This document shows, in pieces, positions 10,190 to 49,408 of a stretch of 64,000 nt of DNA (position 1 is its first letter; every line of letters starts with the position of its first letter). Made by a program: the position numbers and the translations under genes. This DNA is from Saprospiraceae bacterium. GTDB lineage: Bacteria; Bacteroidota; Bacteroidia; Chitinophagales; Saprospiraceae. The notes under the pieces are model-generated. The model searched no databases. It had not been told where the DNA came from and saw nothing but the letters and a program-made list of their open reading frames with translations. The stretch spans positions 19,529 to 83,528 of the forward strand of contig JAGQWX010000018.1 of the NCBI GenBank assembly GCA_020436935.1, read 5' to 3'.

Positions 10190-11041
10190 CTAATCCAACA
10201 CCTTCAAATCTTTGAAAATGGACCTGGTAATGGACTTTCTGCAAGCCCCAAAATCTTCGCGGTTTTGGTTTCTGTCCTGCAAAAGTCTGGTCGCAAAAAA
10301 ATAAACATCATTTCCTTTCTCGATATAACCCACCCACCAGCCGGTGTTGATGTTGTTTTCTCGGGTCCAGCCTGTTTTTGATCTTATGGTAAAGGCATCA
10401 GTGAATTCAGTCACCATTACTTTTTTGACGATGGCCATGTTTTCCTGGGAGAAAGGTAAATTGCCAGCGTACAATTTTCTGAGGAATTCGACCTGATTGA
10501 TGGGCGAGATAGCGAAAGCTCCAAAATTCCAGAAATCGGCGTCTTTTTGTGAAAGGTCTTGGTTGCCATAGTCAGATAGATGGAGGTAATGTTCATAGCG
10601 CTCTTTGCCTATGCGTTTGGCCAATTCTATAAACACCCATCCGGCAGAAACTTCAAATGCTTCTTTCACGGACATGTCGTGGTATATTTCAGGTCTGTAG
10701 CCATATTTGACGGTGTCAGTATCTCCTGGCCACGCAACGATCTCATGCTCATTAGCAATGACTTTGGTCTCTAATGCTATCAGCAAATTGATGATTTTGA
10801 AGGTAGATGCCGGGAGGGTAGGGAATTTCACCCCAAGGGTATCAGAAAGTATCCACTCTTTGTTTTGTTGATTGAAAATGGCTATGGAGCCTTCAACTCC
10901 GCATGCATCAAAATAGGATTTGAATTCTGGTTGGATGGTGGTTTTGTAAGGTATAGGTTTGGTGGGTGTTTCAATTGTGTTTTTCTTATACTGGCATGCA
11001 ATGATTAGTATTGAAAAAATGATTAGTTTATGTAAGTGCAT
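10190..11041 (-). CDS. Class D (OXA-type) beta-lactamase lipoprotein
   Basis: Lipoprotein signal (FSILIIACQ). Class D motifs PASTFKI (S-T-F-K), YGN (SDYGNQD), KTG (SKTGWT) and WWVG. 283 aa. Confidence 0.8.
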   Translation of the reverse strand: MHLHKLIIFSILIIACQYKKNTIETPTKPIPYKTTIQPEFKSYFDACGVEGSIAIFNQQNKEWILSDTLGVKFPTLPASTFKIINLLIALETKVIANEHEIVAWPGDTDTVKYGYRPEIYHDMSVKEAFEVSAGWVFIELAKRIGKERYEHYLHLSDYGNQDLSQKDADFWNFGAFAISPINQVEFLRKLYAGNLPFSQENMAIVKKVMVTEFTDAFTIRSKTGWTRENNINTGWWVGYIEKGNDVYFFATRLLQDRNQNREDFGACRKSITRSIFKDLKVLD

Positions 11042-11059: not shown

Positions 11060-11761
11060 TTATTTTAATGAAACAGGATTTAATTTGTCCTCCATCCACT
11101 TGCCTGGGTTATTGATAATGTAGTTTTGAATTCTGATAAAAGCATCCTCTGACCTGATGATATGGTCGTGATAATTTTGTTGAAAAAAATGATTTTTGCG
11201 ATGATATTTTGGAATTGGTAAATTATGCTGGTCAATATAATCATCAATTTTTGTATTCACTGCCGATTTGAATCCTGCAATAAATGACGATATGGATTTT
11301 GGTAATCGTTGCGGTAGAAACGAACGGCCGTTCGTTTCTACGGTGCCGTTCGTTTCTACATCACCGTTCGTTTCTGCGGTGCCGTTCGTTTCTAAATCAC
11401 CATCCAATTCAACAAAATTGTTCGTTTCAACAATGCCGGACATTTCTGTGGGGCTGTTTTGTGGAACTGCAAGGTGGTTCGGTTTTACATTGTTATTAAT
11501 TTCGACAATGGTATGCAGATGATTAGGCATCAAAACAAATGAATGCAGAAATAATTCAGAACGCAAATCAAAGGATTTGTACCATTCCTGCAAGACGATT
11601 TCCCCCATTTCTGATAAAATCATTACACCATTTTCAATCCTTCCTAAATTGCATGTTCTATTTTGTGTAACAATGGTTAAAAAATAAAAAGCATCTGAGG
11701 AATAATTCCAATGGGGCCTTCTATGTGAAGATGTTCTGAATTTGTTTCGAAATTTTTCCAC
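11060..11761 (-). CDS. IS200-like HUH (Y1) transposase-like protein of the RAYT-like family, carrying an in-frame repeat insertion
   Basis: HuH motif LMPNHLHTIV. SFIAGFKSAVNTKI. C-terminal YHDHIIRSEDAFIRIQNYIINNPGKW, the family signature with the catalytic Tyr. The central linker contains the tandem ETNG(T/D)(A/V) repeats. Confidence 0.7.
   Translation of the reverse strand: MEKFRNKFRTSSHRRPHWNYSSDAFYFLTIVTQNRTCNLGRIENGVMILSEMGEIVLQEWYKSFDLRSELFLHSFVLMPNHLHTIVEINNNVKPNHLAVPQNSPTEMSGIVETNNFVELDGDLETNGTAETNGDVETNGTVETNGRSFLPQRLPKSISSFIAGFKSAVNTKIDDYIDQHNLPIPKYHRKNHFFQQNYHDHIIRSEDAFIRIQNYIINNPGKWMEDKLNPVSLK
11314..11401. repeat. 28-bp perfect palindrome followed by ~4 copies of an 18-bp tandem repeat, inside the HUH transposase-like CDS
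   Basis: gtagaaacgaacgg|ccgttcgtttctac (11314-11341) is a perfect inverted repeat. ccgttcgtttct(a/g)(c/a) then recurs every 18 bp at 11328, 11346, 11364 and 11382. In-frame, encoding the ETNGxx repeats. Confidence 0.85.
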
Positions 11762-11793: not shown

Positions 11794-13185
11794 CTACATC
11801 ATCTTCATCGCCACAGGATCCCACAATAGCGGTTTTCCTGCTTTCATACTCATGTTAGCTCCCAATGATGGGGCAGCGGCCCTGAGTCCAAAGGTGGTGT
11901 CTTCTACAATTTTATCCCCATCGCGCAATGCTTTAATGAAATTCTGCCAGTGGTGGGCATGGGCGTTGTATCCTTCAGGAAGGCTATATTTAATTTCCTG
12001 TGGTGACTTGATTTTATAACGGAAGTCATTGCCGTGGGTAGCTTCAAACCATTTTTTGAAATCTTGTTGTTGCTTTTCGGAGAATGTGCCGAAGGAATCC
12101 CAACCACCATAGGTAGGTTCCGTTCTTACCGGTCTGTTGATGACTGTGACTCCATCTCCTTCGACAGAAATGACGCCTTCTGTCCCTATGAGTCTGACGT
12201 GTGAACCGCCGCCAGAACCATCGACAAAGTTGACGCGCATTTGTACATTGAAAGCAGGGTGATTTGCACTTTTGTCATAATCGAGCAAGCCGAGCGTAAC
12301 ATCAGGAGCATCTCTGCCATCTTTCCAGAATCTTAGTCCTCCGGTTCCATAAATCTTAGAAGGCCCTACAGCTCCTGTGATGACGTGGAGAGCCGTGAAG
12401 AGGTGTACGAAAAGGTCACCGGCAACCCCCGTGCCATAGTCATCGTAATTTCTCCACCTGAAAAATCTTGTTTTGTCAAAAGGTCTTTTTGGTGCATCAC
12501 CAATAAATGCGTCCCAACCAACTGTTTCCGGACTTGCATCCGTAGGTATGCTGTATTGCCATGCTCCATTGGAGGAGTTGCGGTCATTGCGCGTATCAAT
12601 CAAAATAAGGTCACCAATTGCGCCTGATTTGTAGAGTTCGGCAGCCTTAAGTGTTTCCAGTGAAGTGACCCTTTGGGAACCAACCTGGACTTTAAGCCCT
12701 GATTTTTTTTCTGCCTCAACCATAGTCATGCCTTCGTCGAGGTGGTGCATCATTGGCTTTTCGCAATAGACTGCTTTGCCTGCTTTCAAGGCTTCTTTCA
12801 TGATGTGATCGTGCCAGTGGTCTGAGGTAGAGATACAGACTGCATCAATGTCTTTCATTTCGAGCATCTGGCGGTAATCGCGCATGGTTTTGACATCCTT
12901 GCCAAACTTCTCCTGCATCATCGTCAGCCTTCCGTCATACAAGTCGCAAGCGGCAGCAATCTCCACTCCAGAAACTTTGGATGCTGAGTTGGCATTGGCA
13001 AGACCCTGGATGCCACAGCCAATGAATCCTATTCTGATTTTGTCATTGGCGGTGAACTTTCTGTTTGCGAATGCATTCTCGGGCATTTCCAGGAAATTTT
13101 CACCGGCTTTGAGATTGGTACCGAGAAGTAAAAGACCACCAAGGCTTGCTTTTTTGATGAATTTGCGTCTGTTTTCTTTTGACAT
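11794..13185 (-). CDS. Gfo/Idh/MocA-family NAD(P)-dependent oxidoreductase with a twin-arginine (Tat) signal
   Basis: MSKENRRKFIKKASLGGLLLLG is Tat-like. IRIGFIGCGIQG Rossmann motif. Typical Gfo/Idh/MocA length. Confidence 0.85.
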   Translation of the reverse strand: MSKENRRKFIKKASLGGLLLLGTNLKAGENFLEMPENAFANRKFTANDKIRIGFIGCGIQGLANANSASKVSGVEIAAACDLYDGRLTMMQEKFGKDVKTMRDYRQMLEMKDIDAVCISTSDHWHDHIMKEALKAGKAVYCEKPMMHHLDEGMTMVEAEKKSGLKVQVGSQRVTSLETLKAAELYKSGAIGDLILIDTRNDRNSSNGAWQYSIPTDASPETVGWDAFIGDAPKRPFDKTRFFRWRNYDDYGTGVAGDLFVHLFTALHVITGAVGPSKIYGTGGLRFWKDGRDAPDVTLGLLDYDKSANHPAFNVQMRVNFVDGSGGGSHVRLIGTEGVISVEGDGVTVINRPVRTEPTYGGWDSFGTFSEKQQQDFKKWFEATHGNDFRYKIKSPQEIKYSLPEGYNAHAHHWQNFIKALRDGDKIVEDTTFGLRAAAPSLGANMSMKAGKPLLWDPVAMKMM

Positions 13186-13426
13186 GGCTTGAATTCTTTG
13201 ATTTGGATTTAAAATAACTACAGACTAAAATAAAAGTATATTTTCAAACCAAAGTATTTTCACCCAATTTGTATTATTTCCACCCCAAAGCACAGGATAA
13301 GCTCTGAGCCTTAATAAACATTACTACAAATTGATTGCCATTTGGATTTCTTTGTTGATGTAAATCCATTGAAGTACTGATTCTTCTATATCAAGGCACT
13401 TCGAAATTTTTGATCAGTAAGATTGA

Positions 13427-16400
13427 TCAAAAATTCTCATGCTTGATGACTACTCCCGGTTGAATCACAAGGTTGCCATCTTGAACAATTAATGATGTTT
13501 TAAACCTCAGGTTGCTTTCGAATATATAATCCTTGTAAATGGTACCAGGAGCATCAATGGTAAAACTGTTGACTTTTGTGTTCCTGAAGTCAAAATGCAT
13601 ATTATATGGCGATTGGTTGACAATTATAAAATCCGCTAAACTGAGATTTGCGCCAGTATTGGGTCCAAATTTCAATGTTTGGATGCTTGTATTATGCGAT
13701 GTTCCAAGAATTTTAAGGGTGCTGTTTCCCCTACAAATGATGAGAGGGTCGAAGAAGCCAGCAGTTTTTGTAAGCCCGATGACAGGTTTTTGATACTCGT
13801 CATAATTGTTGCCCATCTCCATATTTACATTTTCAAAATAAAACTTACCACCTTTACTGATATCTAAAAACTGATTGACCCGCATCAAAGTTTGTAAGCC
13901 TACACCTCCATCGTTTCCCAGAAATTCTACTTTTAGATCTGTAAGAGATATACTCCCGGTAAAGAACAATGCATTCAATTTCAGGAAAATATCTTTATCC
14001 ACACCGCGAAATGAGATATTTGCGATCGATACATTATTATTAACAAAAAGGGTATCGTCCTCATGGTATCCATATTGGTCTACGACCAGAGTGTCGGCAT
14101 TTTTTAAGGAAGTCAGATTTGTAGGACAACCTCCTGATATATTGCTCCAATTGGGCAAAGGGTCAAATTCATTGGTAAAACCAATCCAATAGAGATTTCC
14201 TGAAAATGTGTTGGGTGAAAAGTTGATTCCCTGATTGTTGCCAATATCAATACTCTCAGGTGCATGAAAGATTGTGCCACCGACAGCTTGTACTCCTTCA
14301 AGTGCAATTTTCCCGAGAATACATAGGTTGTTAACGGTCTTCATCTCCATTTTTATACTCGATGAAGTTGATTTAATGGATGCCTGAGGAAGTGAGTTGC
14401 CAGGACCGCGAATTCCATAATTTACCCGAAGACCTGCGCCGGAGTTGGTTCCAATTTCAAGTTTTGCATTGTTTCCCAATATGAGGGAGTCCACAGATAT
14501 TGAGTCAAATGAATTACGTACGATGCCTTCACCACTCAAAATCAACTTCTCCGCAAAAAAATCGTATGTCAAATTTAGAAGCAGCGAATTGTTTAGTTCA
14601 ATTTGTTTGAGGGGAGTAGGCTTGTGTTGTAGTACTTTTGCTTTTACAGAAGCTTGAGATCCATTGATTGTGGTAGGGCTAAACTCATTGCTACATAATC
14701 TTACCAAAGAATCTGACTCAATGTGGCTGGTTCCCAGATTAAACGTTTTCTCACCATCAGCCCCCTGAATGCTACGCGCATAGATATCATGATTGTTGGT
14801 ATTAAAAGTGCCTCCATCAATGGATAAAATTTCGTCAAGGTTTAGATCATGGTCAATATTAAATATGCTGCCGGAACCTTTGAAATAAAGATATAAACCA
14901 GGCAAGTTGTTTTGTATATTTATATCGCCTTGACCATCCAGCCATATTTGATATAATTGTGCAGCTGCATTCGTATTGAATACTGCTTGAGGTCCTATTG
15001 TGAAAGAGCCTGTATTGACATGTGGCTTTGTTCCTTGCGTATATCCGAATGGCTTATAAAGGGTTACAGCCCCATTATTTGGATTGCTTATCCATGTGAA
15101 ATCTTGGCATTTAGTTCCAATGGAGTAATCCATTAGAATTTCCTGACCCGATCCATCAAAAGAAAAATCATCAATGATAACATTATCGACAGCTCTTGGT
15201 ACACAGGCACCAGGATTATTTAGTGTTTTGGTTTGCAAAGACCAATGGCCTGCGTCAAACCAATTACCGCTGCCATCGACCCAATAGTAAGTTGTGCTTG
15301 TGGTATTTAATGTGGCATTCCAATAGGCATTACTGCCGATCACCTTTCCGGAGGTGACATTAAAAGATGCCCCACCTGTAGTTTTGATGTTGTGAATTAA
15401 GGCCCTTGGAAAAGTAACTGTGCCGATGGTTCTTTTGAAAAAATAGTCATTCTCATTTTTTATGGTAAACATAGTCAAGAGATTGCATGGCCCCCCAGGA
15501 GGTGTTGTAACACTGCCGTTTATGGTCAATTCATTAAAATATGCCCAATTTTCAAAGGTGCTAAACTCTATGGTTTTTCCTGGTTGAATGATTTCGAGAA
15601 GATTGTTGATGGTCATTGAACCTGCGATTCTCGTCAGAAATTCATTGTCAATTTCCAAGTGGTTGATTATTGGATTTCTTACATCCATATTTAACTCATC
15701 TCTATCTAATGGAGGGTCAAAGTTTGTAAGGATAGCATGATCAAGATGAATGTCGTCAAGAAAAAATCTTGGTGAGGATATGGTATGATTTCCGTGCAGT
15801 GTTACTGCTCCAGTATTATTGTATTTCGAATAAAAAAGATTTGTACAAATTATAATCGAGTTATCAAGATAAAGGTCTTTTATTAATGCGTTATCGCTAG
15901 AATATCCCGGAACCCCAACAAACATTGATCCAACAGTGATTTGTGTGCTTTCAGCTAAAAGCACACCTTTATAAAACCTGAAAGTAGCGTTAACTGTCAA
16001 TGGACTTTTGACATTTAAAGCTACTCCTTCTACATCAAAAGTAAGATCATTAAGATCGATATTTTTTGTATCAATCAAGTGTTCATCTTTAAATCCAGGA
16101 CCATTGATCGACCATTTATTAACATGTGGTACGTTATATGTAGTTATAACATTGCTTTCAAAGGTAAGGTCGCCATGCACTTGAATGAATAGGGGGTTGA
16201 GGTTTGAGCCCTGAAAGATAAGTGTTGCGTTTTCTGCATAAAAGTTGTTGGCAAAAAATGTTGTTCCAGCTGGAAAAATGACAGTAATATGTCCAGCGTC
16301 GGCGTTGGTAAGAAAAACATTGTCTGTTGGAGATGGTATGGTGCCTAATGGGTTTCCACTTACGTCTGTCCAATTCGCAGGATCGTTGTAGTTACCTGTC

Positions 16401-39479: not shown

Positions 39480-41084
39480 TTGACACAGGGTATTTATTCA
39501 TCTAAAAAGTATGAACATATGAGGAAACTTATGATTTTATGCTGCATTTGTGCAATTGCAGAATTCGCTATTGCTGGCGACACCTGTAAGTCAGGAAATT
39601 GTTCGAATGGCTTAGGTACACTGGTATCAGACACTTATACATACAAGGGTACCTTTCTCAAAGGGCAATTCCATGGCAAGGGTAAAATAGTCTTCAATGA
39701 CAAGAGTCAATACGAAGGCGCATTTCAAAATGGCTATATTGAAGGAGTAGGGGAGTATCGCTATTCCGGAGGTCATGTTTACAAAGGTGATTTCATCAAA
39801 AACGCCCGAAGTGGAAAGGGAACCATGTATTATGCCAATGGTGACAAATATAAAGGTGCCTGGAAGAAAGACATGATGCACGGGATAGGCATCTACTCAT
39901 TCAAAGACGGCAGTGAATACCGCGGTGAGTTTAAGGACAATGTATTTGCCGGAAGAGGAATGATGACCATGCCCAATGGTGAAGTGTTGAAAGGCATCTG
40001 GGAAAACAACAAAATGATAGGGCCAGACAAGAACCAGGACAGGAGTGATAATACTCCTGTAAACAACTGCAATGCTCAATATTGTCATGAAACCCAGGGC
40101 ACTTACCGGTACAGCGATGGCACCATGTATGTTGGTCACTTTATGAATGGTAAGCCTGCCGGTAAAGGAAGAGTCAATTACAGCAACGGCAGTGTTTATA
40201 TTGGAGACTGGCTCAATGGTGCTCCGCACGGAGAAGGCAAGCTGACCACCTCAACTGGTCAAATTGTCGAAGGGTCATGGTTGGCCGGAAGATATCAAAA
40301 GCAAAAAACTTCAGAACCTGCAAGACAGTCAGGTTCTATGATTGCCTCCTCATCCAAAAAGGACGGCAAAACAACAATATACAGTCTTGTAGTTGGCATT
40401 GCCAACTACAAGACCATGCCTTCTCTGCGGTATACCGATGATGACGCCTACCAGTTTTTTGCCTTTGCCAAAAGCCCTGAAGGGGGAGCAGTTGAAGACA
40501 ATAATATTTCAATTTTGATAGATGATGCTGCTACAGCCTCACGCATCGTCACTGAACTAAAAAGAATTACCTCAAAGGCTGATGCCGATGATGAGATCAT
40601 GGTGTATCTTTCAGGTCATGGACTCGACGGTGGTTTTGTGCCATTTGATTATGGGGAAGGAGCATCAGTATTGCCCTACAAAAACCTGCTCAGCATTATT
40701 GATGAATCCCCCGCAAAAAACAAGATTTGTTTTGCTGATGCCTGTTACTCTGGTAGCATGGCTGCGAGAACCACATATTTTGCCGGACTCGAAGATTTTT
40801 ATACCCAACTCAATGGGAGCGGTCCGGGCACAGTGCTGATCATGTCGTCTATGAACCAGGAAGTATCGCTCGAATATTCAGGCATTCGGCAGGGCATATT
40901 TTCCCACTTTCTAATCAAAGGCCTCAAAGGCGCAGCCAATACCCAAAAAGACCGCATCATCACGGTAGAAGAACTTTACAGCTATGTTTCTGACAGAGTT
41001 AAAACTTATACCAACCATGCTCAAAATCCCAATATTGCAGGCAATTATGACCCATATATGCCGGTAGCTTTCCTACGTCAATAG
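39480..41084 (+). CDS. Secreted MORN-repeat protein fused to a caspase-like (peptidase C14) domain
   Basis: Signal peptide from the internal Met (MRKLMILCCICAIAEFAIA). About 8-9 MORN repeats (YKG.F..G..HGKG...). C-terminal caspase fold with His in VYLSGHGLDGG and Cys in CFADACYSGSMA. Confidence 0.75.
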   Translation: MTQGIYSSKKYEHMRKLMILCCICAIAEFAIAGDTCKSGNCSNGLGTLVSDTYTYKGTFLKGQFHGKGKIVFNDKSQYEGAFQNGYIEGVGEYRYSGGHVYKGDFIKNARSGKGTMYYANGDKYKGAWKKDMMHGIGIYSFKDGSEYRGEFKDNVFAGRGMMTMPNGEVLKGIWENNKMIGPDKNQDRSDNTPVNNCNAQYCHETQGTYRYSDGTMYVGHFMNGKPAGKGRVNYSNGSVYIGDWLNGAPHGEGKLTTSTGQIVEGSWLAGRYQKQKTSEPARQSGSMIASSSKKDGKTTIYSLVVGIANYKTMPSLRYTDDDAYQFFAFAKSPEGGAVEDNNISILIDDAATASRIVTELKRITSKADADDEIMVYLSGHGLDGGFVPFDYGEGASVLPYKNLLSIIDESPAKNKICFADACYSGSMAARTTYFAGLEDFYTQLNGSGPGTVLIMSSMNQEVSLEYSGIRQGIFSHFLIKGLKGAANTQKDRIITVEELYSYVSDRVKTYTNHAQNPNIAGNYDPYMPVAFLRQ

Positions 41085-49343: not shown

Positions 49344-49372
49344 TCAGCAGTTAATAATCCCTTCAATAAAAA

Positions 49373-49408
49373 GCGGTTCTCATCTGCCAATGAGAACCGC
49401 TCTTAAAA
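49373..49408 (+). terminator. Rho-independent terminator after amt
   Basis: Perfect 11-bp stem gcggttctcat/atgagaaccgc with a 6-nt loop, then tcttaaaa. Confidence 0.6.

Follow-up and report, generated by a model that had tools for sequence, protein, structure and literature searches.

In a stretch of 64,000 nucleotides from a Saprospiraceae bacterium (assembly GCA_020436935.1, contig JAGQWX010000018.1; hereafter the window), we have examined a gene of the REP (repetitive extragenic palindrome)-associated tyrosine transposase type (RAYT, TnpA_REP). The reading that we favour, at a probability of about 0.8, is that this gene carries its own REP-type palindrome in frame, within a disordered loop of the encoded protein, together with a slippage-prone array of REP arms, in the manner of subclass 2.4 in the classification of TnpA_Y1 proteins (Quentin, Siguier, Chandler & Fichant 2018, BMC Genomics 19:475, PMC6006769). 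An in-frame REP inside its own tnpA_REP gene is a published hallmark of this subclass (PMC6006769), and the window is a further example, with a new REP variant. Established in the analysis are the fold of the protein, the location of the loop, the identity of the REP as judged by form and homologous position, its prevalence in the family, the dispersal of its consensus form and a polymorphism in the number of repeat units between orthologues. For annotation, this explains the odd, repetitive ETNG linker of the protein and is a caution against annotating the gene as disrupted, or the repeat as a novel element. The features of the gene, in window coordinates, are the following.

11060..11761, minus strand: RAYT/TnpA_REP-like HUH Y1 gene, stop codon at 11060-11062 (from the open reading frame, profile matches and model fold)
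11314..11341, strand not assigned: intragenic double-foot REP, left half GTAGAAACGAACGG and right half CCGTTCGTTTCTAC, translated as VETNGRSFL (position and GGCC centre in 67/81 loci)
11328..11399, strand not assigned: four tandem 18-bp units, (L/A/V)ETNG(T/D), from Tandem Repeats Finder, the unit combining 14 nt of one REP arm with a 4-nt spacer
11418..11431, strand not assigned: fifth copy of the arm, degenerate, with the coding-strand sequence GTTGAAACGAAC.., read as VETNNF (a 61% copy, 92% complementary to 11314-11325)
11477..11761, minus strand: N-terminal core sub-domain, residues 1-95, with the HuH strand (H81 and H83 invariant; strand E81-88)
11300..11476, minus strand: hypervariable insertion of residues 96-154, predicted disordered, in the loop that joins beta3, the HuH strand, to helix alphaC (pLDDT, the predicted local distance difference test score, below 50)
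11063..11299, minus strand: C-terminal core sub-domain, residues 155-233, with alphaC (RLPKSISSF...), the FFQQNYHDH strand and the catalytic-tyrosine helix (from invariant aligned residues and model helices)

The palindrome GTAGAAACGAACGGCCGTTCGTTTCTAC is perfect and has no loop (14+14, 28 bp, at 11314-11341). A scan of the 64 kb for perfect hairpins with a stem of at least 10 found four, among which this is the sole one of its type. DNA hairpins of this kind are bound and cut as single-stranded DNA by enzymes of the RAYT class. Judged by its form and homologous position, the palindrome is identifiable as a double-foot REP, since it has the GTAG...CTAC form and lies at the location where the REPs of subclass 2.4 insert in frame. 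A landed REP-like element had been one of the options in the original prediction, which was made from the letters of the window alone, and it is upheld by this form and this known insertion site. The three other perfect hairpins of the window (40384-40414, 13405-13435 and 49372-49401, with stems of 12-15) are unrelated to the REP in sequence.

The repeats adjoining the palindrome are built from one of its arms. Tandem Repeats Finder reports a period of 18 repeated 3.8 times at 11327-11394 and a period of 36 repeated 2.1 times with 94% matches, and the first 18-bp unit on the plus strand coincides with the palindrome's right arm. Along the coding strand one arm comes four times, with 4 nt after every copy, before the single opposite arm is reached, and the encoded peptide is LETNGT-AETNGD-VETNGT-VETNG-RSFL. 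Both the perfect 28-bp palindrome and the approximately four tandem 18-bp units in frame, as initially described, are thus borne out by the hairpin scan and the repeat finder. Allowing up to two mismatches, the 14-mer arm occurs five times in the window, always at this locus, where 0.2 occurrences are expected and none of 100 shuffles reached five. The region also folds well on the coding strand, both as single-stranded DNA (-28.1 kcal/mol, z = -3.6 against shuffles) and as RNA (-48.5 kcal/mol, z = -4.5 against shuffles). In both kinds of fold the single opposite arm pairs with non-adjacent arm copies, and therefore alternative pairing registers exist, which is the classic substrate for slippage. 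Two identities tried for the hairpin were rejected: an intrinsic terminator, as the coding strand lacks a T-run behind the hairpin and a terminator scan was empty there, and a known RNA family, as Rfam gave no family match anywhere in the window.

A syntenic orthologue (locus P0001, contigs L081/L082) has five units instead of the four of the window, with point differences among the units, while the palindrome is identical. The suggestion of a hypervariable minisatellite is borne out by this difference. A fixed number of repeats among orthologues, together with the absence of other genomic copies of the palindrome, had been named as the outcome that would speak for a neutral low-complexity linker. 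The outcome was mixed: the number varies, which disfavours the neutral linker, and the available sequence of the lineage contained no further copy of this exact palindrome.

These observations may be put together as follows. The REP would first have arrived through a RAYT-type insertion, and it now sits in a permissive loop between the HuH strand and alphaC, where it is merely translated as VETNGRSFL. The 18-bp units would be amplified copies of one REP arm with a 4-nt spacer, and since one opposite arm faces four to five partner copies, a single strand could fold in several registers. Replication slippage, and not the action of the enzyme, would then lengthen or shorten the array, selection would retain only those changes that are multiples of 3, and the insert would barely affect the protein.

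The enzyme and its loop

The gene is an intact open reading frame (ORF) of 233 aa on the minus strand with a GTG start (11060..11761). The HuH motif NHLH occupies residues 80-83 (window 11513-11524), and the C-terminal tyrosine block, ...NYIINNPGKW, contains YIINNP at residues 214-219 (window 11105-11122). The match to Pfam Y1_Tnp (PF01797) scores 25.5 bits against a gathering threshold of 23. The homologue set comprised 893 proteins at E <= 1e-3, with lengths of 195-282 aa, and in an alignment of 25 sequences (A1) the residues H81, H83, F192, F193, Q194, D199, H200, Y214, N218, P219 and W222 were invariant. An AlphaFold2 model built from 25 homologues has a core with pLDDT of about 80-95 and a stretch, residues 96-154, where the value falls below 50. 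According to the secondary structure of the model, with the HuH strand at 81-88 and helices at 157-179 and 205-216 (the latter containing Y214), the disordered residues fall between the HuH strand and the helix 157-179.

Compared with the PDB using Foldseek, the model matched at E < 1e-3 exclusively Y1 transposases (ISDra2, IS608 and IS200) at a probability of 1.00, also for the 4ER8 chains. The chain 4er8_A, which is the Escherichia coli TnpA_REP with bound REP hairpin, gave the lowest root-mean-square deviation (3.4 A) and the top query TM-score (0.45). Sequence searches of the PDB, either with the protein or with the alignment profile, gave nothing meaningful, and the kinship to 4ER8 and IS608 is visible by fold only. 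The HUH, RAYT-like identity proposed at the outset is upheld by the Pfam match above its cut-off and by the resemblance of the fold to the TnpA of IS608 and ISDra2 and to 4ER8. The gene, present as one RAYT copy in the window, can be described as that of an intact single-copy HUH/Y1 enzyme of the RAYT type, with catalysis predicted from sequence and model.

Within the published classification, the protein appears most like subclass 2.4, which corresponds to RAYT group 4 of Bertels, Gallie & Rainey 2017 and is found in Cyanobacteria, Bacteroidetes and others (PMC6006769). Its consensus motifs, derived with MEME, are YIxNNP for the Y motif, NH[IFV]H for HuH and WQ for the W motif, and its REPs have a double foot, 5' GT[AG]G and 3' C[TC]AC (PMC6006769). 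Unique to this subclass are in-frame REPs inside tnpA_REP, between HuH and Y, in a beta3/alphaC loop of variable length that contains short repeats (PMC6006769). The window gene has the YIxNNP motif (as YIINNP), no C-terminal tail domain, a Bacteroidetes host and one copy in the 64 kb, as well as a variable beta3/alphaC insertion with short repeats and a REP in frame between HuH and Y. The REP itself has the same architecture, being 28 nt long with GTAG and CTAC feet and 12 nt on each side of GGCC (GTAG-N8-GGCC-N8-CTAC), as in the entries for ACL24330.1 and AFZ53750.1. The supplement of Quentin et al. gives GTAGAGACGCACGGCCGTGCGTCTCTAC as a double-foot REP of the subclass 2.4 protein ACL24330.1, and lists GTAGGGGCGAACGGCCGTTCGCCCCTAC for another member of the subclass (PMC6006769). 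The variant in the window, GAAACGAACGG followed directly by CCGTTCGTTTC, is not in their table. A further difference is that flanking or dispersed REPs were not found in the available sequence of the window lineage.

Other known systems are more distant. The E. coli TnpA_REP (group 2, 4ER8) shares the HUH/Y1 fold, the GTAG-tagged hairpin as type of substrate and a domesticated-looking gene (one copy in the window), but the sequence identity is 14%, and in E. coli the REPs are extragenic and their stem is bulged. The enzymes of group 2, and likewise those of group 3 (Corneloup et al. 2021), differ in having neither the beta3/alphaC insertion nor an intragenic REP. With the TnpA of the IS200/IS605 family (IS608, ISDra2) the gene has in common the catalytic fold, the HuH and tyrosine chemistry and the recognition of single-stranded hairpins; these insertion sequences (IS), however, are multi-copy with subterminal hairpins at both ends, whereas the window gene occurs once in the 64 kb, has no terminal hairpins and carries its hairpin inside the coding sequence. 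The in-frame REPs and Rickettsia palindromic elements (RPEs) found in other genes are similar in that a palindromic repeat is translated as an extra peptide in a tolerant loop. They differ in that the host gene in the window is the presumed cognate enzyme, and in that the insertion is family-wide and not sporadic.

REP palindromes in homologous loci and beyond

For an analysis at the DNA level we have used 80 homologous loci, on 80 different contigs, taken from one-genome-per-species contigs and almost all from Bacteroidota, which together with the window make 81; the limits of the linker were defined by tblastn domain boundaries. The homologous proteins align well outside the linker, and within it many read V(E/D)T(H/N)GR(A/V/S)(S/Y/F)L. 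The linkers are 56 to 371 nt long and unalignable. In 67 of the 81 loci they contain a perfect palindrome that is centred on GGCC and has a stem of at least 10. These palindromes are centred between ACGG and CCGT and are loopless, with stems of 10-25. The 14 loci that have no linker palindrome have short linkers. Palindrome density amounts to 5.6 per kb of linker, against 0.36 per kb in the 500-bp flanks and 0.007 per kb at greater distance, so that the linker exceeds the immediate flanks about 15-fold and the distant flanks about 800-fold.

The symmetry of these sites was also assessed without selecting for it. Among 87 linker sites picked by the CGGCCG core alone, all 11 outer positions were paired in 54 and at least 8 in 75, whereas 91 control CGGCCG sites elsewhere peak at 2-4 paired positions out of 11, as chance predicts. 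Counts of pair covariation drew on sequences preselected as palindromic, and they were set aside as independent evidence in favour of this selection by core only. The commonest form in the linkers is GTAGAGACGCACGGCCGTGCGTCTCTAC (29 copies), identical to the REP of ACL24330.1 in the published supplement, and symmetric variants of it include ..ACACACGG directly followed by CCGTGTGT.., GTAGAACCGCACGG.. and GTTGATACGCACGG... Relative to the consensus GTAGAGACGCACGGCCGTGCGTCTCTAC, the window variant has two pair changes, both fully compensated.

Tandem arrays occur in 49 of the 81 linkers. All 49 best periods, which span 6 to 60 nt, are multiples of 3, with 18 the commonest, and of 47 arrays 38 touch the palindrome or run into it. 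Units that contain a REP arm are found in many homologues, such as those with VETHGRDMN four times (L010), PNNVEPHG six times (L023) or GRGILPC four times (L007), and also L031; many other linker arrays are devoid of any REP arm, such as those of SPSQ, SDQW or GGGF repeats. In four Flavobacterium species one variant is common to all (GTAGAACCGCACGG.., read VEPHGRAVL) and the repeat numbers differ. The reading frame is biased towards VETHGR.. in the RAYT linkers (65:4) compared with sites elsewhere (38:16), with a Fisher p of 5e-4 for data that are not phylogenetically independent. This bias in the linkers and the variant common to the four Flavobacterium species point to a vertical persistence of the internal copy.

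The same type of palindrome flanks the gene in 16 of the 81 loci, for example upstream in L012, L017 and L031, downstream in L075, on both sides in L045 and as eight tandem copies in L037; hairpins on both sides of the gene are present in L045 and L052. External copies resemble the internal one of their own locus: 12 of 22 have the 22-nt core of the internal copy, where 3.8 are expected and none of 2000 random pairings reached 12. In L077, the foot GTTGAGAC is common to the internal copy and to a copy 7 kb away. The eight tandem copies of L037 (positions 59-606) are AGACGCACGGCCGTGCGTCT, spaced 60-72 bp apart and located immediately upstream of the RAYT homologue, the linker of which has only a degenerate, imperfect palindrome, ATGGACGGCCGTGCGTTT, with 6 of 11 outer positions paired.

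Beyond these loci, a metagenome scan with the consensus 28-mer matched at least 120 contigs. The 132 sites comprised 14 in linkers, 12 near a RAYT gene and 106 elsewhere, and this REP type is therefore dispersed, most sites being away from such genes. Roughly half of the dispersed copies lie inside stop-free frames of at least 150 aa, where they are read as VETHGRASL or RDARPCVST; the consensus 28-mer is open in two of its three frames and identical on both strands. The occurrence of intragenic REPs in genes has been described before (Di Nocera et al. 2013), and the dispersed consensus copies in long frames fit that description. Examples of GTAGAGACGCACGGCCGTGCGTCTCTAC read as VETHGRASL or RDARPCVST in unrelated long ORFs are found in L141, L118, L172, L109 and others. 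In L141 (at 3234, 4835 and 7995) three paralogous ORFs of approximately 540-560 aa contain the REP in equivalent positions, ahead of a C-terminal segment reading 'IDISHLP.GVYF'.

The wider value of the comparison lies in these numbers at the level of the family: the approximately 800-fold density in the linker, the compensated symmetry, the variants common to internal and external copies and the arrays that preserve the frame. They sharpen the question of why one enzyme family alone keeps its substrate inside its own gene.

Alternative explanations

Several observations weigh against the reading of a subclass 2.4-like gene with a REP that is simply tolerated in its loop. The concentration in the linker, approximately 15-fold over even the near flanks, together with the frame bias, exceeds what a passive passenger would need, and may reflect either shared ancestry or a function. 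The variant of the window has no other copy in the 64 kb or in the approximately 20 kb of the orthologous contigs (L081/L082), and a metagenome scan with its own 22-nt palindrome core gave zero matches; the genome search proposed with the original prediction thus brought no second exact copy from the available sequence of the lineage. At the protein level, the match to the NCBIfam model of the REP-associated tyrosine transposase (NF047646, REP_Tyr_transpos) reaches 58.2 bits (E = 8e-16) for an equivalog cut-off of 80, and is broken into two parts by the linker. The protein has NHLH in place of NH[IFV]H and, as its whole clade does, FQ (FFQQ) in place of WQ; these HuH and W motifs are consensus descriptors of subclass 2.4 and not the criterion of its clustering, so that the mismatch weakens the membership without excluding it. 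Finally, the published biochemistry of TnpA_REP belongs to groups 2 and 3 (for group 3, Corneloup et al. 2021), with group 4 outside it.

A first alternative, which we consider unlikely, is that the internal REP is a selected cis-acting element, either a sheltered master copy or a hairpin in DNA or mRNA by which the enzyme or the cell adjusts the expression of the RAYT gene. By far the most frequent location of the REP is the linker (67/81 loci, versus 16/81 with flanking copies), and the palindrome stays perfect across distant taxa by means of compensated changes. It is identical in the window and in the orthologue in spite of the differing units next to it, one variant is common to the four Flavobacterium species, and the frame bias is stronger in the linkers than at other sites. 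In the window, moreover, the region folds much better than shuffles and holds the sole copy seen in the available sequence of the lineage. On the other hand, the element is dispensable, given the 14 of 81 homologues that have short linkers and no palindrome, and the hairpin has no T-run on the coding strand, so it would not act as an intrinsic terminator. The copying or repair of REPs can preserve symmetry without selection, the pair statistics came from sequences selected as palindromic, and Quentin et al. regard the insert in the loop as peripheral and of little impact (PMC6006769). The concentration in the loop, the kept symmetry and the frame bias leave some limited room for a cis-acting or sheltered-master-copy role. 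It is rather doubtful that the system centres functionally on the internal REP, as a sheltered master copy through which enzyme and substrate are inherited, and horizontally transferred, as one unit, and just as doubtful that the enzyme acts on it in cis, as an autoregulatory hairpin or as the donor of new REPs. If the master-copy reading were true, the REP family would have its last reservoir in the internal copy in lineages which, like that of the window, show no other copies, and the half-REP array would be a record of the cut-and-rejoin events of the enzyme.

The array could also be attributed to the enzyme and not to the polymerase, the half-REP units being footprints that the enzyme left by cleaving and transferring strands at the GTAG foot, and not a product of slippage. 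In groups 2 and 3 (for group 3, Corneloup et al. 2021), the enzyme binds the single strand in its folded form with the GTAG guide, cleaves beside the REP at a CT or CA dinucleotide and can rejoin strands in vitro. Each unit opens at the GTAG foot or close to it and comprises exactly one arm, and the amplification of an arm recurs in homologues (L010, L023, L007, L031). We nevertheless judge this origin improbable: many of the linker arrays (SPSQ, SDQW, GGGF) involve no REP arm, and periods of 6-60 nt are typical of slippage beside a stalling hairpin. Very improbable, and contradicted by the family data, is a neutral low-complexity linker in which the palindrome arose as a chance by-product of the repeats and is unrelated to REPs. 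The loop is indeed disordered and hypervariable, and the exact palindrome has no second copy in the available sequence of the lineage, but most relatives carry a like palindrome at the homologous position (GTAG foot, ACGGCCGT centre, 28 nt), its consensus form is both a dispersed repeat and a published REP, and the number of units differs between orthologues.

Least credible, and rejected, is an autonomous insertion sequence of the IS200/IS605 type with hairpins as transposon ends. The Y1 transposase fold would suit such an element, as would the hairpins on both sides of the gene in some homologous loci (L045, L052). At the window gene neither flanking REPs nor IS-type hairpins were found, including the terminal hairpins that the original prediction had proposed to look for, and the ORFs next to it are only 32 bp and 18 bp away and keep their synteny in the orthologue. 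The gene occurs once in the window; the 80 other loci are each on their own contig. The ratio of nonsynonymous to synonymous polymorphism (pN/pS) relative to the syntenic orthologue, with repeats excluded, is about 0.25-0.34, a value from few substitutions that speaks for purifying selection. The single-copy, domesticated look noted from the sequence is consistent with this absence of flanking hairpins, the tight syntenic neighbours and the pN/pS of approximately 0.3.

Neighbouring genes and minor observations

Downstream of the RAYT gene lies the ORF of a class D beta-lactamase (10190..11041). It is on the same strand, as had been indicated, but the gap measures 18 bp and not 19 bp. Among the NCBIfam models it matches the OXA-1327 family best, with 431 bits, and because this is under the family cut-off of 590 the protein is a distinct relative. 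Upstream, at 32 bp from the RAYT gene, is the ORF of a GFO/IDH/MocA oxidoreductase (11794..13185). The order oxidoreductase, RAYT gene, beta-lactamase gene is retained in the orthologous contigs (L081/L082, locus P0001), where the oxidoreductases are 98.5% identical. None of the 80 other homologous RAYT loci has this beta-lactamase or this oxidoreductase as a neighbour, and only the near-identical orthologous contigs have both. The linkage to a beta-lactamase as a trait of the whole family was rejected, the neighbours being unmatched in all 80 homologous loci; the adjacency is lineage-specific.

Some of the homologous loci contain additional elements. Beside the main gene, L077 (10742-11017) and L025 (8868-8987) have a second, more divergent RAYT-like N-terminal domain, perhaps from a tandem paralogue, perhaps a fragment. 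A different family of short palindromes, GTGGTT[CG]GTG...CAC[CG]AACCAC, is present in several copies within a few kb in L039 (4689-7438) and L012 (1683-2450), and has the look of a distinct REP-like repeat of those genomes. The locus L029 (8806-9374) has GTAGAGACACACGGTCGTGTGTCTCTAC three times, with the centre GGTC and not GGCC, at intervals of approximately 270 bp and approximately 1 kb upstream of the RAYT homologue of Arcicella, whose linker contains a long array of VQAHGRVSEITTPIEI units.

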